A model generated the notes under the pieces. It had not been told where the DNA came from, ran no database searches, and was given only the letters and a program-made list of their open reading frames with translations. A stretch of DNA of 64,000 nt from an uncultured Gammaproteobacteria bacterium (GTDB taxonomy: Bacteria > Patescibacteriota > Patescibacteriia > PEXW01), in contig CAZAMC010000003.1 of assembly GCA_964486505.1 (NCBI GenBank), positions 139,120 through 203,119 of the forward strand, read 5' to 3'. This document shows, in pieces, positions 3,001-51,957 of the stretch. Each line of letters opens with the position of its first letter. Positions within the stretch are counted from its first letter, which is position 1. The position numbers were made by a program, and so were the translations under genes.

Positions 3001-4057
3001 CGCCCTTGCTGGTCTGCACGTTCGTAACGTCGTACGTCGCCGCCATAACTTTTCCGTCCGGCCCCGTAACCGCAACGCTCTCCACCGTGCGCGCGGTGTC
3101 TTTCACCCCCAGGAATTTTAGCCGCGAAGGCTTGCTCACCTGCACGCTCACCACCGGCTCATCCGTGGGCTTCACAATCTGCTTATCAATGCTCACCGCG
3201 TCTTTCGGTAGTACCAGAGATTCGCGCTTCACCGTTGGTTTGGCGCCAGCTTCCACTGTAAAACCATCTACGTACACGGCAACACTCGTGTCGGAGGGTA
3301 CGGTAACAAACCGCGCCCGCACCTGCAGCGTGCTCAGCGCATCCCGCGTGAGGGTGGGGAAGGGGAAGCGCCAGTACCCACCGTGGGAAACGTTGCTCAC
3401 ATCTTCGGTGAGGAAAAAAGAGTCCAGCTTTGTCCACTGCTGGCCGTCGAGGCTGGATTCCAAAACAAATGCATCTTCACTGGCCGCATTCCCCTGGGCC
3501 GCCAGCGACACGACGAGCGTGGGATTTGTAAAGTCGGCCTCGGCTGGAAACTCTTCCGGCAAAGAAAAACCTTTACACTTGAGCAAAGGGTCAACGCTTG
3601 ATGCATCCCCAGGCTTCCGGCTAGCCACCGTTGCAGAAATGTCAGCCGTGGGTACGCCGTTACTCAGGACATCAAGGTTCGTCGCACGGTCGGCATTTTC
3701 CCAGCCCGAACAGGCCGCGGGCTGAGCGCGGTAGGCAGCGGTACCGGATGACTGTGCGCGCCCGGTAAGGGCAATGCCCGCAATGAGGAGCAGACTCAGG
3801 AGCCCCGCGGACGTGACCAGGGAATGCCGGAAAAAACGTTGGACACGATTGGCGGCCAAAAGCGCAGCGTGGCGGGCGCGCTTCCGCACACGGGTGGGCC
3901 GGGGACCAACCCGCCCTGGTTTTTTTGTCTGGCTAGCGGCACCACGCACCGATGCCGATACGCCCGACACTCGACGACGCGAAACTGACGATCGGCTGCT
4001 TCGTAAGCCAAACGGTTTTGCTTTGGTATACCGCGTGCGAGATTTTGATGAAGGCAT
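1..4057 (-). CDS. Giant cell-surface protein (partial; C-terminus lies beyond left window edge): N-terminal basic tail + single TM anchor, >1300 aa extracellular beta-rich domains, lectin/LamG-like C-terminal region
   Basis: Minus-strand frame is open from 4057 to position 1 and is missing from the ORF track because it has no in-window stop. ATG at 4057-4055 is preceded by AAGGAGG (4062-4068). N-terminus reads MPSSKSRTRYTKAKPFGLRSS...RFFRHSLVTSAGLLSLLLIAGIALTG (TM helix), then long S/T/G/V-rich extracellular sequence ending ...NTWYRVEMRVDFGTGSSGNTILAARLDGVEF... The overlapping plus-strand ORFs (590..1162, 2333..3121, 2982..3725) are S/T/R-rich antisense artefacts. Confidence 0.6.
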   Translation of the reverse strand, partial: MPSSKSRTRYTKAKPFGLRSSRSSVSRRRVSGVSASVRGAASQTKKPGRVGPRPTRVRKRARHAALLAANRVQRFFRHSLVTSAGLLSLLLIAGIALTGRAQSSGTAAYRAQPAACSGWENADRATNLDVLSNGVPTADISATVASRKPGDASSVDPLLKCKGFSLPEEFPAEADFTNPTLVVSLAAQGNAASEDAFVLESSLDGQQWTKLDSFFLTEDVSNVSHGGYWRFPFPTLTRDALSTLQVRARFVTVPSDTSVAVYVDGFTVEAGAKPTVKRESLVLPKDAVSIDKQIVKPTDEPVVSVQVSKPSRLKFLGVKDTARTVESVAVTGPDGKVMAATYDVTNVQTSKGVVAKYAIHTDGFSKPGMYTTELTVVEGNKEAIVTSEFLWGVLVINMDKSVYWPGETVSFGMGVVNAEGHTVCDASLTLRIVAPDGSEKVLTTEQEDGVQRSTTCGPDNVTDVADYSAEYETFDEGTYTVTLTAKTQEGEYTISDAVVVDAVIPIAIGRRGSMRIFPPAQYTMAVDVRPQQQYRGTVEEYVPPSFTILKVSDGGTVIKGQQRTTIRWQVDIPDHTLKTLTYRYDAPDISPELFRLGPLQVGDVQESRQWQIASDAIGAAAPTRLWMTGFESSEAATSTPAADNEYTANVNSPTVSGTTVRSGSYSLRANPSSSTQGMSYNFRASNDATGTYFRVYMRFATLPAGNTTLIAINDSGPSTQASVRFVSSSNVLQLWDDDGTLSNGVAEQVGSNSAIIATNTWYRVEMRVDFGTGSSGNTILAARLDGVEFASSTNRNWVNGIMTLQAGIITTSTSADMFLDDFAINVDSTNSVAGEGYPGPGSIVYLRPNGNGTNTAWPNCTGAGCVADYQSVDEVVPETTNSQTDLYVSCSGSQTEDYTLTDATSSGIDANDEIRLMMAMARAGAGSSTLGRNYSLVIGDGTTFNTATVVTFQNNNTTFYMNDDSSPRNVTTTVDATGAVTTGMISYDQPGATVAPWTPTGVNSAQVRLASTDCSPVMNVDTIWVEVEYIPAEGGRLWTSGFELQSVTAGVEYTTNAGTNPAISTTAGTFRSGAASLRTNPSGALMAMSNDFGTGDVTDDFYARAYVRMATRPNSNTKIMVFRDNAGTDQASIRYDNANNTLELWDEEGTGGTPIQVGSDSSRVIATNTWYMLELKVDTTTIGSTALAARIDNQEFASGTVNHDNGVKSLLLGAVTTSTTADMYWDDAALNQGLGATQNSYPGPGSVVAMQPNATGDNTAWAVSISCVAVDYTCVDEVTPNDATDAVGSSTLNQTEDNNFETAANAGIGTNDAITLVHAGIRFNVSSATATSVKVRLKAAASGPVVESFETT

Positions 4058-30908: not shown

Positions 30909-31955
30909 TTAGCCTTTCAAGCTCTCTGGGTTCATCATGTACGCCTTCGCAATGTCTTCAGTTATTTCATTCGCTTCAAAGAGCCGTGTGAGGTCCTGGT
31001 CCATAGTCACCATACCGTCCGACGCCGACGTCTGGAGCACTGTCTTGATTTGCGCAATTTTGTTCTCCCGGATCAGGTTGGAAATTGCTGGTGTATTGAT
31101 GAGAATTTCCCGAGAAGAAATTCGCCCCCCATTCACCCGCGGCAGGAGCTGCTGCGAGATAATGCTTTTCAAGAACAGAGAAAGCTGAATGCGCACCTGG
31201 TCTTGCTGGTAGGGCGGGAAGACGTCGATGATGCGATCAACCGTCTGGGCGGCATTGAACGTGTGCAGGGTGGCGAGCACCAAGTGGCCCGTTTCAGCTA
31301 AGGTGATGGTTGCGGCAATGGTTTCGAGGTCGCGCATTTCCCCAACCATAATCACGTTTGGATCTTGACGGAGCACATGCTTCAAAGCATCCTGGAATGT
31401 CACCATGTCTGTGCCGAGCTGACGTTGCTTGATAATGGACTTCTTTGATTCGTAGAGGAACTCAATGGGATCCTCGAGCGTAATGATGTGCGCCGACCGC
31501 TCGTTGTTAATGAAGTTAATCATGGCGGCGAGCGTGGTTGACTTGCCACACCCCGTTGGCCCGGTAACGAGGATCAAACCCTGCTTCTGCCGCAACATCT
31601 CGTACACCACCTCGGGGAGCATCAAGTCCTCCATCGTGGGGATCTGCTGGGAAATGATACGAGAGACCAGACCAGCGTTATTCCGCTCCCAGTGGCAGTT
31701 CACACGGAAGCGAAAACCACCAGGAATCTCGTACGACATGTCGAGCTCCCGATCGGTGATGAACAGCTGCTTCTGCTTGTCGTTGAGAATGGAGAAGACA
31801 AGTGCCTGCGTATCTTTCGGCGAAAACGGAGGGATGCCTTCCACTTCATTCAGCTCCCCATCAATGCGCAGGATGGGCGGCTTGTTCGCCACGATGTGAA
31901 CGTCCGATGCGCGGCGGTCTACGGCAATCTTGAAAAGGTCGTCAATTTTTATCAT
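30909..31955 (-). CDS. pilT: Type IV pilus retraction ATPase PilT
   Basis: Near full-length similarity to PilT: ASDVHIV...LILVTGPTGCGKSTTLAAMI...ITLEDPIEF...DPNVIMVGEMRDLETI...AETGHLVLATLHT. RBS AGGAGG 7 nt upstream of the ATG at 31955. Confidence 0.9.
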   Translation of the reverse strand: MIKIDDLFKIAVDRRASDVHIVANKPPILRIDGELNEVEGIPPFSPKDTQALVFSILNDKQKQLFITDRELDMSYEIPGGFRFRVNCHWERNNAGLVSRIISQQIPTMEDLMLPEVVYEMLRQKQGLILVTGPTGCGKSTTLAAMINFINNERSAHIITLEDPIEFLYESKKSIIKQRQLGTDMVTFQDALKHVLRQDPNVIMVGEMRDLETIAATITLAETGHLVLATLHTFNAAQTVDRIIDVFPPYQQDQVRIQLSLFLKSIISQQLLPRVNGGRISSREILINTPAISNLIRENKIAQIKTVLQTSASDGMVTMDQDLTRLFEANEITEDIAKAYMMNPESLKG

Positions 31956-32271
31956 ACGCGCAACCTCCTGGGTAAGGCCTACCAACGACGCTTCGGGCGC
32001 CGGGTGAGCAATGACGAAATACCGCGGACAATCCGTCGTCCGAGGCTGGGTGAAGACTTAGCGTAGTACATAGTCTGGCCAAGCATGAGCAAGCTGATTT
32101 GCCCTTGCGGGAATACACTTGGTGCGAGGCGTTTCATAGTGTGGTTTTTCTTTTAGGTTACGAATACAGTGTAGCACTTTTTTCTCATCTCGTCAACGTA
32201 CGCTTGCGAACCTCGGATAAACACGTTAGGGTGCAAAAAACGAAAAACTGCAACTTCGAAAGGTGGTGCAC

Positions 32272-32953: not shown

Positions 32954-33208
32954 ATGGCAAAACTCCAACGCAAAGTTACGCTGCAGATCATTACGCTGCT
33001 CACCGGTGCGCTTGGCATGGTGGCGGCGCTCGCCTGGAATGAAGCGGTGAAAGCCCTGTTTGAAAAAATCTTCGGCGACGCCAGCAGCCTGGTCGCGAAG
33101 TTTACGTACGCGGTGGTGATTACCGCTATCGTCGTGTGGGTCACCACCCACTTGGCGAAGCTGCAGGATCAGTCGGACGAGGAGAAGAACCAGGACCGCA
33201 AGCCCTGA
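32954..33208 (+). CDS. Small two-TM membrane protein (84 aa), leaderless transcript
   Basis: Extended -10 TGcTATACT (32939-32947) then 6 nt then ATG; only the last 85 codons of the long track ORF 32465..33208 are protein-like. Confidence 0.5.
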   Translation: MAKLQRKVTLQIITLLTGALGMVAALAWNEAVKALFEKIFGDASSLVAKFTYAVVITAIVVWVTTHLAKLQDQSDEEKNQDRKP

Positions 33209-33630
33209 CGCGCTTCGGCCGCTGTCCACACCAAGACTGCCACCGCGAGGATCACAGCCTGCGAGGCGAGGCAGACAATGCAGTAGGCCTGCAGGTCAAA
33301 AGCCTCTACGCCCGTGAGGAAGAGCGCAAACCCGAGGGCGCCGGCACTTGCCAGGGCCATTGCACCCCACGTAAGGGCGCGGAGTTTTTGCGTGATCATC
33401 AACCACACACTCCCCAGAGCAAGCAGCGCATAGCCAACTATGCCGATGAGCGCCACCGGCACGCCGGCAATCTGGCTGGCCCAGCTCTTGTTCACCACGT
33501 CGCAGTTGAAGGTGTCGTTGATATTGCAGAACGTGGATGGGCCCACGGTGTAGTGCAATTTCAACGCATAGGCCGACACGGCAATGCCAACAAGTGACAG
33601 GATGAGGATGGCGATGAGTTTGCGGCGCAT
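33169..33630 (-). CDS. Vitamin K epoxide reductase (VKOR) family protein
   Basis: Four TM helices, a loop Cys pair (CNINDTFNC) and CIVC in the last TM, matching VKOR. Start chosen at MRRKLIAILIL. Confidence 0.6.
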   Translation of the reverse strand: MRRKLIAILILSLVGIAVSAYALKLHYTVGPSTFCNINDTFNCDVVNKSWASQIAGVPVALIGIVGYALLALGSVWLMITQKLRALTWGAMALASAGALGFALFLTGVEAFDLQAYCIVCLASQAVILAVAVLVWTAAEARQGLRSWFFSSSD

Positions 33631-33719
33631 GGTCTGTAGGCTACCAGGTTGACGCGCCCTCGTCGAGGCGGTACCGTAGGCGCACAAACCCATAAATGCC
33701 CTTTGAGAAAGGAGGCTCC

Positions 33720-34922: not shown

Positions 34923-35061
34923 GCACTTTGTATGAAACGCACCGTACGCCACCGGTGTGTTTTTCAATACGGCGGAAACAAAACCTGCATTGACAATGGG
35001 GACGGTTGTTGGTAATACACCTTCACCAAGAAATCAAAAACCCTTTGACAAGGAGGAATGC

Positions 35062-35979
35062 TTGAACGGTTTCAAAGCGGTGCTCAAGAGAGCCCAGGAG
35101 ATTGAGGCGGCGCGCTACGTACCAGTTCCAACGCAGACGTCGGTGGTGCTCCCCATCGTGGGCGCAGTCCGCATCACCGAAGAAAAGCTCGGTGGCGACG
35201 CGCGCTGGAGGGCGACAAATCCAGAGCAGGAAATATTCCTGCGGGACTACTACGGGTCAACGATTTCGCTGCTGGCAAGGGTGCCGGAGCTCGTATCGAG
35301 TGCCGAGGTACTCAAGGCTGCTGACCGGTATGAAGTGCGGGCGAAGAGCGTGCTGGATGTCACCGTCGAGTGGCCCGAGCTGGGTGATCAGACGGACATT
35401 GAGCACGCAATTACCAAGCAGCGCTTCGCGGGTGTTCGCATGAAGAGTGCGTACGTGACCTTCTTCCGCACTGCGGACCACCCGTACCCCGTAGCCTGTG
35501 TGAAGACGAAAACTGGTGACACTGTGTATATGGCTATGTGCCCAGAAGCACGGGGCCTGAAAGATCGGGAACTCGACCGGCTCATTGCCAAGTGCTTCTC
35601 CAGTGCCCAGCTTCGCCCCACATTTCGTGAATTCGGTGGCCTGCGCTTCCCCATGGTCAAGCACGAGCGCCTAGAGAACATCACCTGGCTCGTGGGCATG
35701 CGCGGCCAGGATGCCGAAGAGTGGCCCGCGGAAATCGTGGAGGCAACGCAGGAGACGAAGCTCCGTATGAACTGCAAAGGAGCACGCGTGCGCTCCGAGG
35801 TGCGACTCCGCACAGTGGTGTTACTCAGCGCCGGTCCCATGGACATGCCCCCGCCTGACCACACCATCGACCTCCCGTTCCTCATCTGGTTCACCCGACC
35901 GTCGCTCCCGGTCCCGTACGCCATTGCGCTCATTGGCGAAGCTGACTGGCGCGACCCCGGTGACCTCGAAAACATCTAG
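35062..35979 (+). CDS. Hypothetical protein (~305 aa)
   Basis: Frame is open from 34957; the preferred start is TTG at 35062 (AAGGAGG then 5 nt) downstream of a TTGACA-17-TAATAC promoter at 34990-35018. Alternative ATG starts are at 34957 and 34996. No recognised family. Confidence 0.5.
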   Translation: MNGFKAVLKRAQEIEAARYVPVPTQTSVVLPIVGAVRITEEKLGGDARWRATNPEQEIFLRDYYGSTISLLARVPELVSSAEVLKAADRYEVRAKSVLDVTVEWPELGDQTDIEHAITKQRFAGVRMKSAYVTFFRTADHPYPVACVKTKTGDTVYMAMCPEARGLKDRELDRLIAKCFSSAQLRPTFREFGGLRFPMVKHERLENITWLVGMRGQDAEEWPAEIVEATQETKLRMNCKGARVRSEVRLRTVVLLSAGPMDMPPPDHTIDLPFLIWFTRPSLPVPYAIALIGEADWRDPGDLENI

Positions 35980-36041: not shown

Positions 36042-36959
36042 CTAGCCCGCTGACATGGCCAGAAACTTCTCTGCATCCAGCAGCGCCATCACACCGAAAC
36101 CCGCGGCTACCGAAGCCTGCCGGTAGCGGGGATCGTGCACGTCGCCGGCGGCAAAAACCCCCTCCACGTTTGTCTTGGTGAAGTCCTTCACCACAATGAA
36201 GCCGTGGCTATCAACCTCGAGCTGGTCTTTAAAAATATCAGTTGCGGGTTTGTGGCCAATGGCGAGGAACAGCCCTTGGCAAGCGTAGTCCCGCACCTCA
36301 CCCGTCTGCGCATCCTTCAGCTTCACCCCAGCTACCGCTTGCTCACCAAGCACATCAACAACCTCACTTTTCCACTGCACGGAAATTTTCGGATTTGCAA
36401 GAACACGATCCTGCATAATCTTGCTGGCGTTGAATGAATCTTTCCGATGGACAATTGTCACTTTTGTAGCAAACTTTGTAAGAAAATTTGCTTCTTCCAT
36501 TGCCGTGTCGCCGCCACCGACGATTACGACTTCCTTGCCCTTGAAGAAGAATCCGTCACACGTGGCGCACGCCGATACGCCAGCGCCCCGCAGGCGCTGC
36601 TCATTGGGTAAACCCAGCCACTTCGCCTGCGCGCCCGTGGCGACAATGACGGTCTGCGCTTGTAGCGCTTGATCACCCACCCACAGCCGAAAAGGCCGTT
36701 GGGAAAAATCGACCTTTGTAACGTTCCCATCAATGAACTGCGTACCAAAATGCGCCGCTTGATCGCGCAGCTTCTGCATGAGCTCTGGCCCCTTGATGCT
36801 CACGTAACCGGGGAAATTTTCTACGTCTGTCGTATCCATGAGCTGGCCGCCCGGCTTCATACCAGCAATGACTAGGGGCTGGAGCTCGGCCCGGGCACCG
36901 TAAATTGCCGCCGATAAACCCGCCGGACCAGAACCAATGATAATGAGTTTATGAGCCAT
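36042..36959 (-). CDS. trxB: Thioredoxin reductase (canonical, NADPH-dependent)
   Basis: IIIGSGPAGL...GVSACATCDGFFFKGKEVVIVGGGDTAMEEANFLTKFATKVTIVHRKD: the CATC redox motif and HRKD NADPH motif are both present. Start chosen at MAHKLIIIG. Confidence 0.9.
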   Translation of the reverse strand: MAHKLIIIGSGPAGLSAAIYGARAELQPLVIAGMKPGGQLMDTTDVENFPGYVSIKGPELMQKLRDQAAHFGTQFIDGNVTKVDFSQRPFRLWVGDQALQAQTVIVATGAQAKWLGLPNEQRLRGAGVSACATCDGFFFKGKEVVIVGGGDTAMEEANFLTKFATKVTIVHRKDSFNASKIMQDRVLANPKISVQWKSEVVDVLGEQAVAGVKLKDAQTGEVRDYACQGLFLAIGHKPATDIFKDQLEVDSHGFIVVKDFTKTNVEGVFAAGDVHDPRYRQASVAAGFGVMALLDAEKFLAMSAG

Positions 36960-37110
36960 AGGGGTGAGGAATGTGGAAGCCCCCGCATCATAGCAATATC
37001 CTTCGACCCATCGCAAGGAACTCGCGAGAGAGAAAATCTCGTCACGAGGAAGGACGAGGATTCCCGCGGCGCGGGATCCGTGTCCTGACAAAGTTACACC
37101 AGCCCCGATA

Positions 37111-39231
37111 TTATTGCTCCTCCCAGCTCAACGTCTCGTACTGCCCCGTGGTGGGGAAATCAGGCGGCGGGGCGTAACTCAAGTTCGCATCGAAGATAAG
37201 GTCACGCAAGCAGTACCCCGAATTGTTATACTGGCCACCCCCACAATCAAACAGATTGTAGCCGGTCCAGGCAAAACCGTACCGTTGGTTCGTTGCAATC
37301 GCTCCAAAGTTCGTTAGCTGGGCGCGCTTGCGGTACTCCTGGCACGTTGTCCCGCCATCTGGATTTTGGCTCTGCGTGCAGGTGTCGGTGGTCACGCAGG
37401 TATCACCGGACGTACAGGGCCCCGTACTCGTCGTCACGCAGGTGTCGGTGGTCACGCACGGCCCAACGTCAGGCGCGCTCGAATCACACGTCCCAAAACC
37501 GGTACAGTGCGAATTCTGGGAGCACCCCCGATTATGGTCACCGGTACACCAACCGTTGCACCGCGCGTTCGTCGTGCACGAACGAGTTGGATCATTCTGG
37601 CAGTAGTTGCGGCAGTTGGTGTTCGTCGTGCACGCGCGCGTGGGAAACGCGTTGCAGTAGTTAATGCAGTCCCCGGTGACCGTGCAGGCGCGGTCGGTGT
37701 CCGTGCTGCACTTGTTGTTGCACTGAGCGTCGGCCGTGCAGTTGAGCGTGGGCGTGGCTTGGCAGTAGTTTGTACAGTCGCCATTCACGGCACAGGATCG
37801 TGCGGGGTTGCCCACGCAAATGCCGCCGGTGGGGTAGAGTTGGAAGTTCGCATTGTTCGTCGAGGTCGTGAAGCCTGCCCCGTAGTACGGTCGGCCCACC
37901 CGCCCGTTCTGAGCAATGAGGGCGGCGTCAATGCGAATGTCATTCTCGCTAAAGTACCCAACGAGAATGTTGTCCTGCGCGATGAGCCCAATAACGTCGC
38001 CACCGCTCGTATCGCCAACCGGCGTATACGTGAGGTCCTCGTTCAAGTAGATGTTTGCGCGGCCCGATGCAAGCGGCTCACGAGCGGCCACGATAGTGAG
38101 CCGAGAATTATCAACAGCCCCGTCAACCCAGAGATCGTCTTCCACGAAGATAATGCCATTTGCGGGCAGGTCTACGCCCAGGGAAGAGCCGCCGTTGTAG
38201 GTAAAGGCCGCCTGGTCATTCGCCCGGGTGCCCACGGAGTGTGACGACTGCACGCAGGTTGCCCCCGACGAACACTGGCTACTCTGTGTACAGCTGGTGT
38301 TGAAATCATTTGAACAGTACCCAAAGTCACGCCACGTCCCGCTGGCGTTGTACTGGCAGCGTAGCTGCGCATTCACCACGCGCATGTCAACCTTGCCATC
38401 GGTACGGAGCGTGAGGTGGTACCCTTGCCCACCGGATGGGAGCAGACGTATGCCGCTGGCAATAGCTTTGGTCTGCAACGCCTGCAAGTCCGCGGTGATA
38501 TTGGCGAAATCTACGTAGTCAGCCTGTACCTGCCGGCCCGCTTCAAAAACGTCGGGGCGGCTAGCAATTGTGGCCGGCGGCGCGGCGGGTGGAATGGGGT
38601 CGGTGGGGGCTATGTGTGTATGTACGCCCAGCTCGTTGCTGCCGGTGTGGTCAGGATCGTCGTAGCTATACCGGTACGACGTGACGAGATTATGTGCCAA
38701 ACCGTCAAACCGGATGCCGCCATTGCTGTGTATAGGACCAAATACTTCGGTACCGACGCCGAAGCGCATATCGGCATTCGCCACGACCGCCCACTTGGTG
38801 AATGAGGGGATCCCTTGCCGCACAACCACGGTGCGTGCGCTCGCCGGCCGATTGGTGAGCTGTCCAGTGGAGGTAATGGTTACAACCGTTGACCCCGAAG
38901 GGGGTGGCGCGATATCCAGGGTAAACGTGCCAATCACATTCCCGGTGGTGTCACGGTACTGGTGCACGTAGGGTCCCGTCGTACCCGTGCCATCTTGGAA
39001 ATCATCGGGCACGTGGGCAAGGTGCCACCGGTAGTACTCTACGCCTGCTTCGGCAATCTGAAATGCGCGCTCGCGTTCTACCCGAAATTTACTCGCCGCG
39101 TTCTGGGTGATGATGAACTGGAGGGCCAGCATACCGAGTGTGACGAAAAGTCCGGTGATAACCAGAATGCTCACGAGCATCGAGCCGGAGGACTGATTCG
39201 TTCGCGGTGAATTGGCGCGCGCACGACTCAT
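37111..39231 (-). CDS. Large prepilin-like protein (GspK/minor-pilin-like N-terminus lacking Glu+5) with Cys-rich tandem repeats
   Basis: N-terminus ...QSSGSMLVSILVITGLFVTLGMLALQ is a class-III-signal-like hydrophobic segment. C-terminal region holds 7-8 repeats of C-x5-C-x3-C (...CTNYCQATPTLNCTADAQCNNKCSTDTDRACTVTGDCINYC...). 706 aa; last gene of a three-gene operon. Confidence 0.6.
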   Translation of the reverse strand: MSRARANSPRTNQSSGSMLVSILVITGLFVTLGMLALQFIITQNAASKFRVERERAFQIAEAGVEYYRWHLAHVPDDFQDGTGTTGPYVHQYRDTTGNVIGTFTLDIAPPPSGSTVVTITSTGQLTNRPASARTVVVRQGIPSFTKWAVVANADMRFGVGTEVFGPIHSNGGIRFDGLAHNLVTSYRYSYDDPDHTGSNELGVHTHIAPTDPIPPAAPPATIASRPDVFEAGRQVQADYVDFANITADLQALQTKAIASGIRLLPSGGQGYHLTLRTDGKVDMRVVNAQLRCQYNASGTWRDFGYCSNDFNTSCTQSSQCSSGATCVQSSHSVGTRANDQAAFTYNGGSSLGVDLPANGIIFVEDDLWVDGAVDNSRLTIVAAREPLASGRANIYLNEDLTYTPVGDTSGGDVIGLIAQDNILVGYFSENDIRIDAALIAQNGRVGRPYYGAGFTTSTNNANFQLYPTGGICVGNPARSCAVNGDCTNYCQATPTLNCTADAQCNNKCSTDTDRACTVTGDCINYCNAFPTRACTTNTNCRNYCQNDPTRSCTTNARCNGWCTGDHNRGCSQNSHCTGFGTCDSSAPDVGPCVTTDTCVTTSTGPCTSGDTCVTTDTCTQSQNPDGGTTCQEYRKRAQLTNFGAIATNQRYGFAWTGYNLFDCGGGQYNNSGYCLRDLIFDANLSYAPPPDFPTTGQYETLSWEEQ
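37366..37700. repeat. Direct DNA repeats encoding the Cys-rich modules
   Basis: cacgcaggtgtcggtggtcacgca occurs twice (about 37375 and 37436), with many related copies (gtcaccaccgacacctgcgtgac family). Confidence 0.5.
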
Positions 39232-39830
39232 AGGTTGTCTTTGAGGTTACGGAAGGCCACGCTGGTTTGCAAATCAATAGCGGCCGGGGTTTGGCTGGGG
39301 TCGGCATCAATACTGAGCAGGACGGTGACTAACCGAACGTCCTGCAGAGTTACTGGGAAGGTGAGCGCGGCTTCCGATCCGGTGTATGACGTATCGAAGT
39401 ACTGGAAGATGGGTGCCGCGCCATTGCGCACGCCAGTTACCAACGTGCTCACCGCTTCGCTACCCGCTGGGTACGACGCCGGTTGGCCAACGGGCTGGAT
39501 GAAGCCGAGCTTCAAATCAGAACCCTGGAGAAAGAAGCGAACCTGCTCCCGATCCGCATCTGCATCTGCATTCGCGTAGAAAGTTAATGACTGCGCGGCC
39601 GCCGCAGCAATGGGGTAGCTCCCGTTATTCGAGGGCTGCGCTTCCCGCACAAGCCGTGTAATGCGCGCCAAAGCCGTCCGGGCTTGCTCCTGCGCGTCAA
39701 CTTGCTCTCGATTCTGGTTCCACGTCCGCAAACCAAAAGCCGCAAAGGTGCCTAGCATCGTTGCCACAATTGCAAAGATGCTCGCGGTCACAATGACTTC
39801 AACTAGAGTGAATCCTGAGGGGCGATGCAT
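39228..39830 (-). CDS. Type IV pilin-like / pseudopilin (GspJ/PilV-like minor pilin)
   Basis: Prepilin-peptidase motif MHRPSG|FTLVEVIVTASIFAIVA (G-F-T-L-V-E with Glu at +5); 200 aa; 4-nt overlap with the upstream gene. Confidence 0.75.
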   Translation of the reverse strand: MHRPSGFTLVEVIVTASIFAIVATMLGTFAAFGLRTWNQNREQVDAQEQARTALARITRLVREAQPSNNGSYPIAAAAAQSLTFYANADADADREQVRFFLQGSDLKLGFIQPVGQPASYPAGSEAVSTLVTGVRNGAAPIFQYFDTSYTGSEAALTFPVTLQDVRLVTVLLSIDADPSQTPAAIDLQTSVAFRNLKDNL

Positions 39831-39833: not shown

Positions 39834-41996
39834 TTAGGCCGGAACGAGTGAGAAGGTGTTCTGAACATGACCGCTCACATCCACATCAACCGTCAGAGGG
39901 GTGTAGCCGTCTTTCGTCAACGTCACGCTATAGGTTTGCGCCGAAAGACTGGGGAAGAATGCTTGGCCCGGGGGGGTGCACCCCGTGGTAAATCCAATAC
40001 GCACATCAGTAATACCGGGCGTCACCTTCTGGTCTGCCGTCTGCAAGAAGAGCTTGTACCGGATATAGCGCTTCGACTGAATACTGGCTGGCAATGCATC
40101 ACCGCTTGTGGTGAAGTACGTAGCGTTCGTGCCATCTGGCCCCACGAAATTCCACGTTGCATTATCGTCATTCGTTGCGAGCTGGAAACGGGCCGCCTCA
40201 GACCCTGCCTCGGCGGTCTGGCTTTGCGGTTCCCACGTGAGCCCAAAGAACGTGCTCGCCGTACCCGTGTCATAGGACGACGACGTGAGCGTCCCGTTGC
40301 TGGCGTACGTCTCTATAGTCAAGTCAATGGAGACATCCTGCACGACGGGCGTCACATTGGGGTCGGCGGTTTCGAGTTCAATACGGAAGCGCAGGACGTC
40401 ACCCGCCGAAACAAAGGCATGGGTCACATCGGGGGTAACTTCTTCAAACGTCGTGCCATCGGCCGACAGGTAGTAGCGAATAACCTGGCCATTCTCATTC
40501 CGCGCCGAACTCAGCGTGGCATCCACAATCTTCCCGGCGGGTGTGGGGATCTGCAAAGTCTGGGCTATCGCGCTAGCATCGTATAGCCCCGCGGTCTGAG
40601 ACAGGCGGAGCTCGCCCGCCCCGGTATCCCAGGTCGCCGTCGTAGAAGGATCACGGTTGGTAGTGGTATCAAAACTTTCGGATACCGCATCGGCACTCGA
40701 TGACTTCGTGAGCGTTACCTGGCCCGGCGTAGAGGTGACGTCAATTCCGCCGGTCTCGCTGTCGTACTTCGTCGCGTCTGTAAAATCTGCTTGGCCACTC
40801 CCGCCCGACCAGTTGGTTTGTGCCCATGTGCCCTGGCCGGTTGTCTTCGTCCCTACCCCGCTTACGTCAACGGTCGCCCCCGAGATGGGTGCGCCCGTGT
40901 TGGCATCCTTCACGCTCGCCAAAAGGGAGTTGGCCGAGTAGCTGGTCGTGAGGACCAAGGTAACTTGCGCATTCGTATCCGGCAGCACGTTCAAGCTCGC
41001 GGGCGGGATTATGCCAGCAATATTTCGCGTCAGCCCACCGAGCGTCAGGGCGTAGTTATCCCAAACCAAGCTACTCGCGGTCGCTTGGCCGCTACCATTG
41101 GTGGTGAAGCTCTGATCATACGCCAGCACCGGCGAGGGCGGTGGGTTGCCTTTCAACCGTTGGCCGCTGAGCTGGAAGTCAACTCCGGATTGCACTGCGC
41201 ACGTCTCGTTCACGGTGGTGAACGCCAAGCTGCTCAGGTGATCGATAGCAAAAGTGATGTCGAGCACGCCGCCGGCGGTAATCGAAAGGTTCGGGCGCAC
41301 GGGGTTGGGGAGTGCTACGGAAACTGCAAAGGTTTGATCTGTCGTGAATCCCGCTTTTGTTACGCGAACATTGTAGTTGTCTACGTCAGGCAGCAGGCTC
41401 AACAGTTGTAGCTTGCCGTTCACGTCCGTCTTCGAAGAAATGTCGACATCCGGATCCAGATTAGTATTCGTCACGTACACGTCTGCTTCCGAGACAGGCA
41501 GCCCCGACGCATCAATAACCGAAACCAGGAGCGAACCGGTATTCGATGGCGACTCCAGGCCCGCCGGCATAATAGATGTAGTGAGTTTAACCGCCTCGTC
41601 GCCTCCTGCCCACGTAACAGACACCTCGACCAGCTTGTAGTCCGTGGGCACCGTATCGGGTGGCGTGTCGGTGACCAGCTTATCGAACGTATCATCTACC
41701 CACTTCACACACGTATCCACCGTGAAGGTGACGTTGGAACGGACGGCGGTCATGGAGCGGGCGAATGGTCCGGTCACTTCGCACGTTGGCGCTTGCGTCC
41801 CGACGTCGCTAAACGGCGCATTGCGGAGCACCTCAATGCGCTCATTGGCTAGTGCGGTTGCGAGGACGCGAACCTTAGAACGGGCCAACTTCTCGGCGCT
41901 TAAGCTAAACATCCCTAACGCAAATGTCACCACGAGGCCAATAATTGCGACCCCAATGAGTGTCTCCACAAGTGTCGTGCCCTTCCTCCGTAGCAT
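39834..41996 (-). CDS. Giant prepilin-like protein (720 aa) with Ig-like/carboxypeptidase-regulatory-like extracellular domains
   Basis: N-terminus MLRRKG|TTLVETLIGVAIIGLVV is a type IV pilin class III signal with Glu+5, followed by a long S/T/V/D-rich beta domain. Confidence 0.7.
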   Translation of the reverse strand: MLRRKGTTLVETLIGVAIIGLVVTFALGMFSLSAEKLARSKVRVLATALANERIEVLRNAPFSDVGTQAPTCEVTGPFARSMTAVRSNVTFTVDTCVKWVDDTFDKLVTDTPPDTVPTDYKLVEVSVTWAGGDEAVKLTTSIMPAGLESPSNTGSLLVSVIDASGLPVSEADVYVTNTNLDPDVDISSKTDVNGKLQLLSLLPDVDNYNVRVTKAGFTTDQTFAVSVALPNPVRPNLSITAGGVLDITFAIDHLSSLAFTTVNETCAVQSGVDFQLSGQRLKGNPPPSPVLAYDQSFTTNGSGQATASSLVWDNYALTLGGLTRNIAGIIPPASLNVLPDTNAQVTLVLTTSYSANSLLASVKDANTGAPISGATVDVSGVGTKTTGQGTWAQTNWSGGSGQADFTDATKYDSETGGIDVTSTPGQVTLTKSSSADAVSESFDTTTNRDPSTTATWDTGAGELRLSQTAGLYDASAIAQTLQIPTPAGKIVDATLSSARNENGQVIRYYLSADGTTFEEVTPDVTHAFVSAGDVLRFRIELETADPNVTPVVQDVSIDLTIETYASNGTLTSSSYDTGTASTFFGLTWEPQSQTAEAGSEAARFQLATNDDNATWNFVGPDGTNATYFTTSGDALPASIQSKRYIRYKLFLQTADQKVTPGITDVRIGFTTGCTPPGQAFFPSLSAQTYSVTLTKDGYTPLTVDVDVSGHVQNTFSLVPA

Positions 41997-42069
41997 AGGT
42001 AGTAGTATAGCGTACTTCCACGGAGGGCAGTGCTATACTAAGGGGCGACTCGCTCTAACCCAAAGGCTT

Positions 42070-45000
42070 ATGACCCGTCGACACTACCTGAAGTTCACGA
42101 GTGGACTTCTCCTATTCACTGTGCTCTGGTCATTCCCGGGAATGATGAGCCCAGCGCGGGCTGTGACCAACGTCGTTGCTGGCACCGTTACTACCAGCGC
42201 CGGGGCGCCCATGGCGGGTGTCACCATGGAGCTGCACACGCCGGACGGTGTTTTCACGACAAATACCACGACCGCGGCGGATGGTACGTATCACTTTGAC
42301 AACGACCTTACGGTGGGTACGAACTACGTGGTGGAACCGCGGACGCCCGCAGGCTACAACCGCGTAAATACCAGCGCGAACAACAATAACTTTACCTACG
42401 ATGGGGTTTCTCGCTCAGGGGTGAACTTCCAGTTTGTTGCCACGAGCAAAACCATCAGCGGCCGCGTGACGGACACGAACGGCGTTGCCATTACCGATGC
42501 CGACATTAACATCACGCCCTACAACAACCCCAATGCCAGTAACGCCGCCGCCCGAACCGACGGCACCGGCGCCTACTCGGCCACGGTCGTGGGCGGCACG
42601 TGGTTTGCCCAGCCTGTGGTCAACCTCTCCGAATACACACAGCGCTGGATTAGCGAGACGCCTCCACAGCGCATCGACTTTGCGAACGACGCTACTGCCG
42701 AAACGGCAACCCTCAACTTCCAGGTAACCCCCGCCACTGGGAAGGTAACCGTAACCTTGCTCAACAGCGACGGGAGCAAGCTCACGACGAGCAACTTCGT
42801 AGCCGACATTAACTTCCGCCGGGCCGATGGCGTAGGCACCATGCGCAAAGTGCAAGCGGCCACCTCCACTGTGAGCGTGTACCTCACCCCGGGCATCTAC
42901 ACCATCTCGGCGTTCCACAACGATCTTCGCGGTAAGTCATTCGATCCCGCCGCAACGACCTTTGTAATGACAGAGAACGGGAACGTAGACCTCGGGACAG
43001 TGCAAGCCCAAGTCGATAGCGCCCACCTGACAGGCAAGGTGACGAATACCAGTGGCCAAGCCCTACCGAATGTGCACATCCAGGCCATCCGCGAAGGCGG
43101 ACAGGAGCGGCCGAGTGGGAATACTGACCCGAATGGAAACTTTGATCTCACGGTTGGTGCAGGCACCTGGGTGATTGGCCTGGATACGAACGATACCTCG
43201 CACACCCTGGTTGCTCCAGTGAGCGCAACGGTGACGAACGGGCAAACCACGACGGGCCTCAATTTGCAGGTCAAGGACCTCGACCGAACGGTTTCCGGAC
43301 GGGTGCTGAACGCGAACGGCGCGGTGGTCACTGACTTCGTGGGCAGCGTGTACGTCCGAACACTATCGAACAGCGCCCGGGTGAGCGCCCCGGTCGTTGA
43401 TGGCACGTTTAGTGTAAAGTTCGCATCCAAAGAGATAACGGGCAGCAAAATTGTCGTTGGAACCCAAGCCGCCCCCGGCACGGCCTATGCGGGCGGCAAT
43501 GAAAAGCAGGTAACGTCGGGAAATACTGTGGCTACCGATCTTACCCTCCGAGCATACGATGCCACGCTCACGGGTACACTCCGCTTGCCGGATGCCACGG
43601 TAGTCACCAATGCGGGTTCGGACCTACAGGTCGTGGCTGTAGATGCCAGCGGTAACTTTGCCAGCACCACAGTTGGGGCTGATGGCTCGTACTCTCTGCC
43701 CCTTGCCGCCGGCACTTGGCTCTTCGACTACGACATTGAAGACCCTGAGGATACCAGTGGGTTGCTCAACCGCCCCTCGGGCCAGAGCAGCGTCACCATC
43801 AAGGCCGGCCAAACGCTCACGCGCAATCTCACGGTTCGGCTCGGCACGAATACCATCACCGGCACAGTGCGCGACTCCAGTGGTGCTGCCGTTGGGAGCG
43901 TAAAAGTGACCATCGACAACCGCCCCTCGCTGGAGAGCAATGCGGCCACAAATCCAAACGACATTGTCACGCAGACCGTGGAGACGGATGTGAACGGCGT
44001 GTACACCACAAAAGTCCCGAATGGTACGTACCTCATCACTGTGGGCGAGACCCCAGCAGTTGCCGACACCCAGATCCAACCCGATGGCAAGGCGGTAAAA
44101 GTGAGCGGCGGCTCAACCACGACCGTGAACCTCACCTTTGAGGCAAGCAACGCCGTAGTGAAAGGCAAGGTCCTCCTCAACGGCAAGGGCGAGGGTGGCG
44201 GTACCATTACCGCGTACTCCGCCGATGGCGCGCAGGCAACGGCCACCGTGAACAGCTCGGGCAACTACACCCTGAACCTAAACAAGAACGAGAAGTGGAC
44301 CCTGGTCGCCACTGACCTCAAGGGTCAGCGCTTGGTGGCAAGCGACGCTGCCGAAATTACGCCGAAAGCAAACACGACGACCAAGAACCTCACGGTAAAA
44401 GACACGGGACTTGCTGTTCCCGGCCCGGTCACCAAGACCGGCAACGCCGATGATAGCGTGAGCGTGAGCCTGGCCGATGGCACGAACGTCACGGTTCCGC
44501 CCTTCGCCCTCGATATTTCGGGCACTGTGGAAGTAACCGTTACCCCCACCATCGATATTGACCCCACGACGCTGGATCGCCCGGCTTCTCTCGCCTATGA
44601 AGTAAGCGCATTCGATGCAACAGGCCGCGAGGTGAAAGCGCTCAACACTCCGGCGACGATAACCTTGCCGTACAAAGAGAGCACGGTGGTGAATAACGGG
44701 TTGCGGGAGAAGGCGCTGGCGACCAAGTACTGGGACTCGCAAACCGAATCCTGGTCCACCGATGGCGCCGCCGGACTTGTGAATACCACCAAGAACACGG
44801 CGACACTCACTACGACTCACCTTTCAAAATTCTCGGTTACCGGCACGGCCCGGGCGACACCAAAACTGACGGCGAGCAAGTTGGTGAGCCGCAATAGCAC
44901 CAGCCTGGTCATCGAAGTAAGCGGCAGCAACATGAAGGGCAAAGCCACAGCAAAACTTGGCACGGTGAAAGCCACAAAAGTAGAGGTGCGCAGTAGCAGC

Positions 45001-45153
45001 GTTGCCCGCCTCACCTTCCCGACCAAGTCGGTGAAGAACGGCACGTACGACCTCACCTACACCAATGCCGATGGCCGCTCGACAATCAAACGGACTACGG
45101 TAAGTACCGGCCGCGTGCTTGGCGAGAGCGTGGCGCGGATTATTCCCCGATAA
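42070..45153 (+). CDS. Large secreted multi-domain protein (repeated CarboxypepD_reg/Cna-B-like Ig-fold modules, C-terminal IPT-like domain)
   Basis: Start chosen at MTRRHYLKFTSGLLLFTVLWSFPGMMSPARA (signal peptide). Recurring ...G.V.D..G.....A.V........TDA.G.Y.....G.Y modules; 1027 aa; divergent from the pilin-like operon. Confidence 0.7.
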   Translation: MTRRHYLKFTSGLLLFTVLWSFPGMMSPARAVTNVVAGTVTTSAGAPMAGVTMELHTPDGVFTTNTTTAADGTYHFDNDLTVGTNYVVEPRTPAGYNRVNTSANNNNFTYDGVSRSGVNFQFVATSKTISGRVTDTNGVAITDADINITPYNNPNASNAAARTDGTGAYSATVVGGTWFAQPVVNLSEYTQRWISETPPQRIDFANDATAETATLNFQVTPATGKVTVTLLNSDGSKLTTSNFVADINFRRADGVGTMRKVQAATSTVSVYLTPGIYTISAFHNDLRGKSFDPAATTFVMTENGNVDLGTVQAQVDSAHLTGKVTNTSGQALPNVHIQAIREGGQERPSGNTDPNGNFDLTVGAGTWVIGLDTNDTSHTLVAPVSATVTNGQTTTGLNLQVKDLDRTVSGRVLNANGAVVTDFVGSVYVRTLSNSARVSAPVVDGTFSVKFASKEITGSKIVVGTQAAPGTAYAGGNEKQVTSGNTVATDLTLRAYDATLTGTLRLPDATVVTNAGSDLQVVAVDASGNFASTTVGADGSYSLPLAAGTWLFDYDIEDPEDTSGLLNRPSGQSSVTIKAGQTLTRNLTVRLGTNTITGTVRDSSGAAVGSVKVTIDNRPSLESNAATNPNDIVTQTVETDVNGVYTTKVPNGTYLITVGETPAVADTQIQPDGKAVKVSGGSTTTVNLTFEASNAVVKGKVLLNGKGEGGGTITAYSADGAQATATVNSSGNYTLNLNKNEKWTLVATDLKGQRLVASDAAEITPKANTTTKNLTVKDTGLAVPGPVTKTGNADDSVSVSLADGTNVTVPPFALDISGTVEVTVTPTIDIDPTTLDRPASLAYEVSAFDATGREVKALNTPATITLPYKESTVVNNGLREKALATKYWDSQTESWSTDGAAGLVNTTKNTATLTTTHLSKFSVTGTARATPKLTASKLVSRNSTSLVIEVSGSNMKGKATAKLGTVKATKVEVRSSSVARLTFPTKSVKNGTYDLTYTNADGRSTIKRTTVSTGRVLGESVARIIPR

Positions 45154-47121: not shown

Positions 47122-48777
47122 CTAGGAAATTTCCTCGCGCTTTTCCTTAAGGTAACTAAACCACTCGTCAACGGCCTCCACGAACATCTTGAACGGTGCT
47201 TCGATAATGAAATCCAGGAAGAAAACAATGAAATTCACTTTCGGCACCTTCTTGGAGAACCACTGCCCTAAACGCAGGATCGGCAGGGAGAATGACGAGA
47301 GGAGAAGCAAAAATAAGTTCTCCCGACGATCGCGAAGGGTGAGCTCTTGAGCGAGACCCCGCACGCGCGTGCCAAACAGTGAGATAACCGAGAGGAAGAA
47401 AATAAAGACGACGATGGAAAGCCAGTTGAACTGCAAGGCGGTGAGGCCCCAGACAATGGCGCCAAAGGTGACAACGAAAGTCGCCAGGTAGAACAGGTAA
47501 AAGAAGAACGAGCGCAGTTTGCCCCGGGGCCGGGGTCGGAGCCGAGCGCCGAAGATTTCTCGCGGCGTGGTGGGACTCACAATTTCCTGCACAGCTTTTA
47601 CCACGAGCGCCGTATTCTCCTTACCAGGCAAGCGGGCGGAGAGAGCAATGGTGAACATGAGCACCGGGTGGAAAATGCTGTTGATGTAGATTGGCATGAG
47701 CGCCCGCTCACGCAGCACGAAGACTTCGTACGGCAACTCTATCGCCAGCGCCAGCATCATCTTGGTGATGAAGATGTAGATAATGCTCCGAACCGAGGTG
47801 CGGCGTAGGCGCGTCCGGGCCGTCTTCAGCTTGCTCTTCATGGCCTCCTCAACCGCTTCCTGCAGGGTAGCGGGATTCTGCAGGATGGCGTTGGCTTCCT
47901 GGGCGCCTTTCTCGCGAACTATGTCAGCCAAAATGAGAAACGGGATTGTGTACCGACGACAGATGACGAGCAGGCGTTCGGAGAGAGGATGGTTAATGCG
48001 CTCTTCAATGGACTCAACAAGCTTTGGAAATTTCTCTCGCACCTGTTCGGTAACGGCGTGATTGGGGTGCTCCCACTCGGGGAAGGCCCACTTGAAAAGG
48101 TGGTAACGGAGCACAGCGTCATCGCTCTTTATGAGCGCTCGGTGAATTGCCAAGTACACGAGTACATCTTGCTCCTGGCCAGCCGGCACGCTTTCGGGAA
48201 GTACGAGATTTGAACGAATCGTAGCGTACATGACTTCCACCAGGGCATCTTGCCGCGTACTGGGTGACAGCCGTTCTTCTAAATCGGCAGAAGCCACGCT
48301 GAGAATCCAACGAATATGCCGGCGGTCTTCCGGGTTCGTGCGCCGAAGCTGAAGGTGGTCCAGGAGCGCCAGGTACCGGTCCACGTAATTTTGGACGACG
48401 GCCACAAGTGTCTCAGGCAAAGCATTGTTGGGCAGGTACCGGCCACGAATGAGTTCGTAGATGAGCAGCCGAGCATCGACCATGGAACGATTCTCAACCA
48501 AGTACCGCCGCCGGAGAATGCGCTCAATGGCGTTCCGCCGCAACAGGTGCTCCTCATTGAACTCAATACTGTTGCGCAGCTTCTCGTAGAAGTACGCCAT
48601 CTTGCCAATGACTTCGTTGAGCTTAATGCGGGGCAAGCCTGGCGGCGCCTCCAAGTTCGGCAAAGGCTCTGCATAGCTCTGGAGGAGCTTCAGGGCGCTT
48701 TTCGGGAATGGGGAGCCTTCGGTCATATGGGTATCTCTATTGTAGCCGAAACCTACCACGTCGACGATGGATGACAA
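47122..48777 (-). CDS. Hypothetical protein, N-terminal ~330-aa helical domain + C-terminal multi-TM domain (551 aa)
   Basis: Long ORF with good coding composition but no RBS; 5-6 TM helices in the last 220 aa; no family recognised. Confidence 0.5.
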   Translation of the reverse strand: MSSIVDVVGFGYNRDTHMTEGSPFPKSALKLLQSYAEPLPNLEAPPGLPRIKLNEVIGKMAYFYEKLRNSIEFNEEHLLRRNAIERILRRRYLVENRSMVDARLLIYELIRGRYLPNNALPETLVAVVQNYVDRYLALLDHLQLRRTNPEDRRHIRWILSVASADLEERLSPSTRQDALVEVMYATIRSNLVLPESVPAGQEQDVLVYLAIHRALIKSDDAVLRYHLFKWAFPEWEHPNHAVTEQVREKFPKLVESIEERINHPLSERLLVICRRYTIPFLILADIVREKGAQEANAILQNPATLQEAVEEAMKSKLKTARTRLRRTSVRSIIYIFITKMMLALAIELPYEVFVLRERALMPIYINSIFHPVLMFTIALSARLPGKENTALVVKAVQEIVSPTTPREIFGARLRPRPRGKLRSFFFYLFYLATFVVTFGAIVWGLTALQFNWLSIVVFIFFLSVISLFGTRVRGLAQELTLRDRRENLFLLLLSSFSLPILRLGQWFSKKVPKVNFIVFFLDFIIEAPFKMFVEAVDEWFSYLKEKREEIS

Positions 48778-50487: not shown

Positions 50488-51957
50488 TTACCGACTGTCA
50501 GGAGCAACCGCTGGGGCGTCCACTGCGGCCGATCCTTCGCGGGCGGGCAGAATGGTAGTCTGCTGATCTAGCACCGCCGTGACGAGCGGCACCACGATTG
50601 CGGTGCGGTAGAGTTGCTCACCCTGTGGCGCTTTGGTAATGGGGAAGACGAGCGCAGGAATGAGGTACTCGGTATTCGTCTGCTCTATCTGGTAACGGCT
50701 GGGGTAGTAGCCCAGGGTGGGTGTACCGACCTCCACCTGTACCTTCTGCACGTTCTGATCGGTGATGGTCGAGCCGTACATCCCGCCTCGCTTCACCACG
50801 TCCAGCACCTGTGCTGTATCACTAATCAATGGGTACGCCGACGACTCGTACTGCAAACTCGTGAGGTTATTCACCGATGTCACCCGGTTGAGCGTCAGGT
50901 CAATGTCCACCGTGAGGCCCATGGGGTAGCCATTCTCGTTGACGACCGCCGTACCATTGACAACCAGCGGGTATACCACCTGCACGCTCTGCACGTACCC
51001 CAGACCGGCCTTCACCGACGTTTCACCGTAGCCCAAGAAGTACTTCGGCACTGCCGGCGCGCCATATGCGCTCCGAGGAATACCGTACTGATCCAAGAAG
51101 GCGTTCGCTGTGGCAATCAGCTGGTCGTCGCTCGGCAGCGTCGGCCCGCTGTTTACATTCGCCACCGCCTCGCGCAGCGGCTGCGTCCAGCGCTCCCAAT
51201 TCTGGTAGAGCCCAATGGATCCGTCCCGCAGGTCAATGCTCACTGCGTACCCTTGGTCCTTGTCCTCGGCGAGCGCAATTTGCTGCACCGTAAGCTGAGA
51301 GAACTTCTCCAAGTCCACGAGCCCGAGGTTCGCGCTCTGCACAATTGCATTGAGCGTGCTGCTCGGCAGCTGATTGGTGCGCTTCAGTACGGAAGCCGTG
51401 GGAATGGCGAACTGCGAACCGGTGTACACGTACACGTAGGTTTTGGCCGGCACCGGCGCAATGAGCGATGACGGAGCACTAGAGTCAGCCATGGACTTAA
51501 CGGACGACGTGCTGCCACCTGAGCCCAGCCCTTCCCCTAAGCGTGCTGATTCCTGCGCCACCGGGTTGCTACTGAAATTTCCAAAAGCGCCGGCGTCACG
51601 ACTCGTCACCGCTACCCGTGGGGCAGTGGCACCGTCGTCGGTCGCGATGGATGCTGGCTCAGTGCGCGTGACGTATGCGTAGGTACCAATACCCACAACG
51701 GCCAAAGCGAACACGCTGAAGAGGGCGTAAGAAAACTTGCGCATAGTGAAGAAGGGTGAAGAGTGAGCGGGGGAATGGCGCGCCTCACGCGCTGCAAGCT
51801 GCTGACGCATCTGGTCACGAAATGCGGGGTCCAGGTGCGCGTCGGGTTTGGTTGCCAAGAGTTTCTGGATGATAGGCACGAGCTCGGCCTCGCGCTCGCG
51901 GAGTGACGGCTCCACGGCGTAGAGGTCGGCGAGGATGTCTTGCAGGAGATCAGGCAT
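50488..51957 (-). CDS. Putative anti-sigma factor (N-terminal cytoplasmic domain, single TM, large extracytoplasmic domain)
   Basis: 8-nt overlap with the upstream ECF sigma gene; TM at KFSYALFSVFALAVVGIGTYAYV; about 390-aa extracellular domain. Confidence 0.6.
   Translation of the reverse strand: MPDLLQDILADLYAVEPSLREREAELVPIIQKLLATKPDAHLDPAFRDQMRQQLAAREARHSPAHSSPFFTMRKFSYALFSVFALAVVGIGTYAYVTRTEPASIATDDGATAPRVAVTSRDAGAFGNFSSNPVAQESARLGEGLGSGGSTSSVKSMADSSAPSSLIAPVPAKTYVYVYTGSQFAIPTASVLKRTNQLPSSTLNAIVQSANLGLVDLEKFSQLTVQQIALAEDKDQGYAVSIDLRDGSIGLYQNWERWTQPLREAVANVNSGPTLPSDDQLIATANAFLDQYGIPRSAYGAPAVPKYFLGYGETSVKAGLGYVQSVQVVYPLVVNGTAVVNENGYPMGLTVDIDLTLNRVTSVNNLTSLQYESSAYPLISDTAQVLDVVKRGGMYGSTITDQNVQKVQVEVGTPTLGYYPSRYQIEQTNTEYLIPALVFPITKAPQGEQLYRTAIVVPLVTAVLDQQTTILPAREGSAAVDAPAVAPDSR

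Follow-up and report, generated by a model that had tools for sequence, protein, structure and literature searches.

An open reading frame (ORF) on contig CAZAMC010000003.1, within the 64,000-nucleotide stretch of DNA analysed here (the window), encodes a pilin-like protein in which a three-cysteine motif, C-x5-C-x3-C, is repeated in tandem. The question raised by this locus is what such an array contributes to a pilin, and whether the DNA that encodes it is of the kind that readily expands and contracts. The protein is designated P0126 in the protein collection and is the query (Q) of the comparisons below. The evidence makes it likely that the array is an undescribed, extracellular, probably disulfide-bonded accessory module in a surface loop of a tip minor pilin. 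Judged by sequence comparison, the array is old and stable over shorter time scales, with rare unit duplication and gain, loss or relocation of whole blocks over long ones.

The cysteine array and its host protein

The whole array occupies 37342-37818 on the minus strand (aa 472-630) and contains 25 cysteines in 159 residues. Counted from C472, the cysteine spacing is 8, then five rounds of 6, 4 and 8, and then 6, 6, 10, 6, 8, 6, 6 and 12. The five exact 18-residue units start at aa 480, 498, 516, 534 and 552 (aa 480-569; nt 37525-37794). They are followed by a terminal module, the variant unit C-x5-C-x5-C (C570, C576 and C582; aa 570-582), which together with C562, the last cysteine of unit 5, gives the pattern C-x7-C-x5-C-x5-C. 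A threonine-rich tail, CVTTDTC-VTTSTGP-CTSGDT-CVTTDTC, with C-x5-C and C-x7-C spacings, ends at the near-invariant C630. A preliminary description of this DNA had placed seven to eight units at 37250-37720. Repeat units are indeed present, but they number five canonical units and one variant, followed by a different, short-period tail; similarly, that span overlaps the array but misses its first 1.5 units and includes 37250-37341, which lie outside it. The 18-residue, three-cysteine repeat of the protein is itself real. The peptide quoted earlier lies in the ORF at 37111-39231, and 16 cysteine pairs are 18 residues apart, whereas region shuffles gave a maximum of 11 and none of 20000 reached 16. 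The motif array is found in no other ORF of the window.

The units consist of threonine, asparagine, serine, aspartate and glycine with one aromatic residue per unit; they have nearly no aliphatic core residues and nearly no histidine. All Cys-Cys distances within the window array are even numbers, but odd spacings (3, 5, 7 and 9) occur in some relatives, so the even-distance rule is not universal. In total P0126 contains 32 cysteines: the 25 of the array (site B), five at aa 292-326 (site A), and C663 and C674. The C-x7-C-x5-C-x5-C pattern at the end of the site-B array recurs at site A and at a middle site.

The host protein falls in a known class, that of the ComZ/GspK/PilX-type tip minor pilins. 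P0126 has a prepilin-type start (SSG followed by SMLVSILVITGLF), in which a hydrophobic alpha-1 helix is preceded by a conserved glycine; this residue, Gly16, is conserved in at least 90% of 121 aligned relatives. Residue +5 after Gly16 is serine, not glutamate. A missing Glu5 is typical of GspK-type tip subunits. The whole protein matches no Pfam family (E<=0.01) and no NCBIfam family, and PF14341 (PilX_N) matches neither the whole protein (E<=0.01) nor its first 80 aa (E<=10). Two orthologues of full length exceed the PF14341 cut-off of 25.5 bits, P0008 with 28.6 bits and P0013 with 28.1. In addition, several relatives have precomputed PF14341 matches, and several are named 'pilus assembly PilX N-terminal domain-containing protein' at their source. 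Homologues of P0126 number 2938 at E<=1e-3, and wherever a source lineage is stated it is Patescibacteria.

An AlphaFold (AF2) model of P0126, built with the 121-sequence alignment, has a mean predicted local distance difference test (pLDDT) score of 84.5, and predicts a long N-terminal helix and a beta-rich body, the latter with values above 90. In structure it matches other minor pilins best, and the part modelled with confidence has the ComZ/GspK/ice-binding protein (IBP)-solenoid fold, in agreement with the architecture of ComZ (PMC6561018). As modelled, P0126 combines a pilin domain with a large beta-solenoid of triangular shape that is related to the ice-binding proteins of DUF3494, the combination by which a ComZ-like protein is recognized. 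In ComZ itself, the triangular beta-solenoid is inserted in a GspK-like pilin domain, and this arrangement was argued to fit the pilus tip only (PMC6561018). The best-supported assignment for P0126 is a ComZ-like minor pilin at the tip of the type IV pilus of a Patescibacteria bacterium. The earlier label of pilin-like was correct and can be sharpened to this type. A spurious ORF or same-frame artefact was also considered and was ruled out because conservation is strong and the ratio of nonsynonymous to synonymous substitution (dN/dS) is ~0.1 or less.

Cysteine parity and evolution of the array

The relatives share a conserved core of ~480 aa in the alignment, and C292 and C630 are each conserved in at least 90% of the 121 relatives. 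In 67 of these, the equivalents of C292 and C630 are the only cysteines at sites A and B. Cysteine-rich inserts are found in four loops of the core. The insert at site A follows C292 and that at site B precedes C630; a third loop lies after 'SSHSIGT' (query aa ~335-340), where an insert is seen in P0012, and the middle site lies at query aa ~402-410. Site A has 1, 3, 5, 9, 13, 17, 21 or 25 cysteines and site B has 1, 9, 13, 25, 27 or 31, so that both anchor sites are always odd, while the middle site has 0 or 4. Over the whole ectodomain, 118 of 120 complete relatives have an even number of cysteines, including 68 of the 70 with more than two. Even parity is the signature expected if every cysteine is paired; the 24 non-anchor cysteines at site B are enough for 12 disulfides.

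Parity also bears on whether the cysteines bind metal, in a metallothionein-like or Zn/Fe-S-like array, instead of forming disulfides. The high cysteine density and fixed short spacings such as C-x3-C would suit metal sites, and AlphaFold does not fold the apo sequence. Metal binding is nevertheless quite improbable because the array is in the extracellular part of a pilin, its even parity is a prediction of disulfides and not of metal sites, and histidine is nearly absent from the units; in addition, a VKOR-family protein is encoded nearby, and no Pfam family matches the array even at E<=10.

The inserts are not tied to one loop. P0012 (848 aa, JGI 3300075153) carries an array that is homologous to and collinear with that of the window (49% identity, E 2e-45) in a different loop, at aa 387-552; it shares the signature NARCNGWCTGDH.RGCS...APDVGPC and includes three near-identical consecutive units. 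At site B, five canonical C-x5-C-x3-C units are present in the query and in P0001-P0004, five plus an extra unit without its first cysteine in P0005, four in P0006, three in P0007, six plus an extra unit without its first cysteine in P0008, and two in P0013. P0009 has none and carries a short, different eight-cysteine insert instead, and all other examined relatives have none. In P0006 and P0007 all five unit positions are kept, with the spacing altered in one or two. Units 1-5 of the window find their best matches in the positional equivalents in P0001 and P0002.

The preliminary description had taken perfect 24-nt repeats and many near-copies as evidence of recent unit duplication. The 24-mer is in fact exact only once, its second copy having two mismatches, and the longest exact repeat is 21 nt (Table 1). 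Tandem Repeats Finder (TRF) reports no tandem repeat in 37100-37850. The 54-nt units are mutually 31-63% identical, with third-codon identity near random; thus, the units in the window gene are old duplications. For annotation, the lesson is that a striking repeat in a protein need not mean a hypermutable repeat in its DNA. At locus L001, the two CVTTDTC copies match each other exactly across 22 nt, and the same pair of synonymous changes sets both apart from the window sequence. This hints weakly at local gene conversion but could also be chance; at locus L002 the two copies differ from each other.

Duplication does happen elsewhere in the family. In the P0005 gene of Ca. Kerfeldbacteria bin-570 (locus L004), TRF reports a 54-nt repeat of 2.0 copies with 100% match over 107 nt (2675-2781); this sequence comes from a metagenome-assembled genome, and the perfect duplication may be an assembly artefact. 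The C-x5-C tail of the same gene contains an 18-nt repeat of 2.9 copies at 3069-3121. Whole arrays differ as well. In a neighbour-joining tree of the core alone, calculated without support values, at least four pairs have an array in one sister and none in the other: P0004 and P0011/P0015, P0003 and P0010/P0014, P0008 and P0030, and P0013 and P0023/P0025. Array-bearing and array-less sisters therefore indicate repeated loss or gain of the whole array.

Among close relatives the array is constant. When copy number was compared across relatives, it was invariant within three clusters of 90% identity, in which all 17 proteins, from different samples, have identical cysteine spacing and differ in length only within the N-terminal leader. 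Similarly, Q, L001, L002 and L003 have zero indels in the array, although their synonymous sites are saturated (proportion of synonymous differences, pS, 0.6-0.88). The array has a dN ~1.5-2 times as high as the core, with dN/dS at ~0.1 or less in the calculable cases.

These observations separate two time scales of change. That such arrays expand and contract holds over long evolution, since orthologues carry 0, 2, 5 or more units and the L004 duplication is 100% identical. The second part of the earlier claim, phase or length variation, finds no counterpart in the 17 proteins with identical spacing or in orthologues whose synonymous sites are saturated. A contingency locus would require frequent copy-number change, by slipped-strand mispairing or unequal recombination, through which the pilus tip would vary in phase or length. 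In its favour, the tandem array is in frame, the two copies of the exact 21-nt direct repeat are 60 nt apart, duplication is seen in L004 and in the near-identical units of P0012, and unit number differs between distant orthologues. Even so, this explanation is very improbable. The window gene has no near-perfect tandem DNA repeat; the cysteine spacing is fixed in 17 of 17 cluster members; and no indel has accumulated in the array among Q, L001, L002 and L003. The reading frame could not be switched in any case, because a unit is 54 nt, and a change of a single unit would leave an unpaired cysteine, against the even parity kept in 118 of 120 relatives.

A second source of rapid variation would be a diversity-generating retroelement (DGR) with the asparagine-rich array as its variable region. 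DGRs are common in bacteria of the candidate phyla radiation (CPR), and the array consists of Asn/Thr-rich units in a surface protein. A DGR target was rejected, and is exceedingly improbable, because the 64-kb window has no template-like second copy of 37331-37830, the best off-site match being 27 nt at 89%. In addition, the substitutions between relatives fit ordinary purifying selection, and no reverse-transcriptase domain was found in the neighbouring genes scanned, a scan that covered part of the window ORFs and not the genome. In the slow evolution proposed for the module, 54-nt units would occasionally be duplicated in tandem, and whole arrays would be lost, gained and moved between loops.

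The proposed module and its fold

The earlier statement that the module matches no recognized domain has held up in database searches. The array gave 0 families at E<=10 in Pfam and NCBIfam and 0 matches at E<=10 in the PDB, by phmmer and by profile, in searches where HMMER filters discard most matches above E ~0.1. An exhaustive profile search, with ten array segments against 1.84 billion representative proteins, returned seven matches, of which two are family members, four are low-complexity noise (P0121-P0124) and one is an RHS toxin. The toxin, P0125 (1926 aa, RHS/YD-repeat), is the sole match outside the family with similar motifs, and the match is weak (E 1e-4). Its cysteine-rich region is N-terminal (aa ~260-400), and the protein contains seven C-x5-C-x3-C motifs. 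A word-indexed protein search with the array alone yielded nine word-sharing candidates but no match, and missed even P0001, which is 89% identical, although the collection contains relatives with ~87% identity over this segment; this is taken as a limitation of the index on a low-complexity query, not as biology. The name 'dickkopf-related protein', given to P0015 at its source, was not reproduced with Pfam or NCBIfam, and the matches of P0015 to EB, EGF and DX are very weak (E 0.6-2.5). In the literature on Patescibacteria, cysteine-rich proteins and pili, no paper was found. The 18-residue, three-cysteine repeat and its spread over four loops are undescribed in the databases and literature searched.

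In the explanation proposed here, the solenoid would keep C292 and C630, and lineage-specific cysteine-rich inserts would grow beside them and in the two further loops. Disulfides at site B would hold the module in place of a hydrophobic core, because aliphatic core residues are nearly absent, and selection would keep the cysteine count even. Its most likely role would be to provide the pilus tip with a binding surface, or with a rigid projection that resists proteases, for contact with host cells, glycans or DNA. A role in tip adhesion or as a receptor is plausible because, in Saccharibacteria, large minor pilins of the PilX type are candidate tip adhesins (PMC11623550). Cultivated Patescibacteria all live attached to microbes of other kinds, with type IV pili as the presumed means of host contact and DNA uptake (PMC11623550, PMC6744442).

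A structural version of this explanation can be specified, in which the 18-residue units would be extra coils on the IBP-like beta-solenoid, forming a disulfide-cored mini-solenoid, and the CVTTDTC tail would make a flat Thr-x-Thr-like surface. Beetle antifreeze proteins are 12-residue Cys-repeat beta-helices with internal disulfides. The constant 18-residue unit without aliphatic core residues, the IBP-type solenoid of the host domain and the long C-x5-C arrays in relatives are consistent with such coils, as are the even Cys-Cys distances throughout the array, which are expected if cysteines alternate to one side of a beta-strand. The AlphaFold prediction for the array, however, is of very low confidence and shows coil or short helices instead of stacked coils, and neither the PDB nor Pfam provides a sequence match. 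Three cysteines per coil have no simple repeating disulfide pattern, and the odd spacings of some relatives do not fit. Although attractive as a specific structure, the mini-solenoid is unlikely. A new disulfide-stapled repeat fold would place the disulfides between units, as the odd number of cysteines per unit implies; it would serve as a rigid tip probe, and whole arrays would act as cassettes that are duplicated, lost and moved among the four loops, a turnover by which these episymbionts would tune their recognition of host cells or ligands. This proposal is tentative, a possibility that is doubtful in its full form.

Several points weigh against the disulfide-bonded tip module itself. The disulfides are predicted from the cysteine pattern, and full pairing within one unit is impossible because each unit has three cysteines. 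AlphaFold gives pLDDT below 50 for aa 496-555 (and 591-606) in the full model. When the array was modelled alone, from a 15-row alignment in which arrays of other loops were also represented, pLDDT was 45.9, and no fold search was based on that model. Since aa 496-555 have no confident fold, the rigidity, shape and exposure of the array are only inferred. The array is dispensable for pilus assembly and for the core pilin, because sister lineages do without it, and the neighbour-joining tree that pairs these sisters carries no support values. Finally, the stability of the array rests on 90%-identity clusters and orthologues, and polymorphism at the strain level may exist. The four-cysteine pattern, in contrast, reaches pLDDT of 80-95 in the model, both at site A and where the site-B array ends (80-85 for aa 561-580).

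In this family, cysteine-rich cassettes of very different length are accommodated in the surface loops of a conserved ComZ-like tip pilin. If it is through these cassettes that ligands are contacted, gaining, losing or moving them would be a simple way to change host specificity. The array is a lead for host recognition in Patescibacteria and a hard target for structure prediction.

Gene neighbourhood and likeness to known systems

The P0126 gene is the third of a cluster of pilin genes (Table 1). Its start codon overlaps the stop codon of the upstream pilin gene as ATGA, and the two genes are translationally coupled. Both genes upstream of it carry prepilin N-methylation motifs, and the order of the pilin genes is the same in L001, L002 and the contig of P0012. 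The VKOR of the window shares 85% identity with the one encoded next to the orthologous operon of L001. The presence of VKOR and trxB beside a cysteine-rich pilin suggests a link of pilin folding to disulfide machinery. MdbA-like oxidoreductase and VKOR are over-represented in CPR genomes, and a role in pilin folding has been proposed for them (PMC6744442). The even-cysteine rule and the neighbouring VKOR and trxB would tie pilus function to extracellular disulfide formation.

Table 1. Coordinates of the cysteine-array pilin gene, its parts and neighbouring genes in the window.
Feature	Position	Strand	Basis
Cysteine-array pilin gene (P0126), 706 aa, PilX_N/GspK-type, putative ComZ-like minor (tip) pilin	37111..39231	-	ORF translation
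Pilin alpha-1 helix, N-terminal, aa 15-73, hydrophobic segment after Gly16	39013..39189	-	AF2 helix 15-73
Site A (aa 292-326): near-invariant anchor C292 and one basic 4-Cys module C-x7-C-x5-C-x5-C	38254..38358	-	Cys positions; pLDDT 91-95
Site B, part 1: C472 and five exact 18-aa units C-x5-C-x3-C-x7	37525..37818	-	Cys positions; periodicity test
Site B, part 2: terminal module and Thr-rich tail to anchor C630	37342..37524	-	Cys positions; C630 at least 90% conserved
Exact 21-nt repeat, copy 1, GCAGGTGTCGGTGGTCACGCA on the plus strand; second CVTTDTC (aa 612-618)	37378..37398		Longest exact repeat
Exact 21-nt repeat, copy 2, 60 nt from copy 1; first CVTTDTC (aa 592-598)	37438..37458		Longest exact repeat
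Minor pilin, 200 aa, prepilin N-terminal methylation motif, upstream	39228..39830	-	PF07963 30.3 bits; TIGR02532; weak GspI-like match
Pilin-like protein, 720 aa, first gene of cluster, N_methyl-like start and CarboxypepD_reg	39834..41996	-	Kept in L001, L002
Thioredoxin-disulfide reductase (trxB), directly downstream	36042..37091	-	TIGR01292 393.9 bits; same place in L001, L002
VKOR-family protein (DsbB-like disulfide-generating membrane enzyme), 3.4 kb downstream	33169..33693	-	PF07884 84.4 bits

Other genes were noted in the surroundings. A T2SSE-family ATPase (PilT/PilB-like) is encoded at 30909-31985 (minus strand), 5 kb from the minor-pilin operon. Divergent from this operon is an ORF at 41644-45153 (plus strand; 1169 aa) with four CarboxypepD_reg stretches and matches to SpaA and Big_6, which is kept in both L001 and L002; since the listed start overlaps the gene for the 720-aa pilin-like protein, the true start probably lies further downstream. 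Three sizeable ORFs, so far predicted only, matched no Pfam family: 34957-35979 (plus strand; 340 aa), 47122-48777 (minus strand; 551 aa) and 50488-51957 (minus strand; 489 aa).

Among known systems, phase-variable adhesin and pilin genes resemble the P0126 gene in that they, too, encode surface proteins in which an in-frame tandem array varies in copy number from lineage to lineage. Unlike them, the P0126 gene has degenerate DNA repeats, a copy number that is fixed in close relatives and a unit that makes frameshifting impossible. Known cysteine-rich repeat domains (Dickkopf_N, EGF, EB, insect antifreeze, granulin and others) gave no significant match for the array at E<=10, whether by family profile or against the sequences of solved structures. 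The array nevertheless shares with beetle antifreeze proteins, EGF/EB and the Dickkopf N-terminal domain a short, regular cysteine spacing and polar, Thr-rich residues between the cysteines. The period of beetle antifreeze proteins is 12 residues with two cysteines, whereas that of the P0126 array is 18 with three.

We know of no cysteine-rich insert in ComZ. The competence-pilus tip pilin ComZ of Thermus thermophilus (PDB 6QVI) shows 13% sequence identity to P0126, and the main text that describes it does not contain the word 'disulfide' (PMC6561018). DNA binding has been shown for ComZ; by analogy it would be putative at most for P0126. The hosts also differ, that of P0126 being a Patescibacteria bacterium, and CPR genomes have been reported to be without the outer-membrane secretin PilQ (PMC6744442). 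The PilX_N (PF14341)/GspK-type pilins, which include the tip adhesins PilX1 and PilX2 of Saccharibacteria, form the second point of comparison, although P0126 itself has no PF14341 match. The accessory domains of PilX1 and PilX2 in TM7x are of the jelly-roll or beta-propeller type, whereas P0126 combines a predicted beta-solenoid with cysteine arrays.

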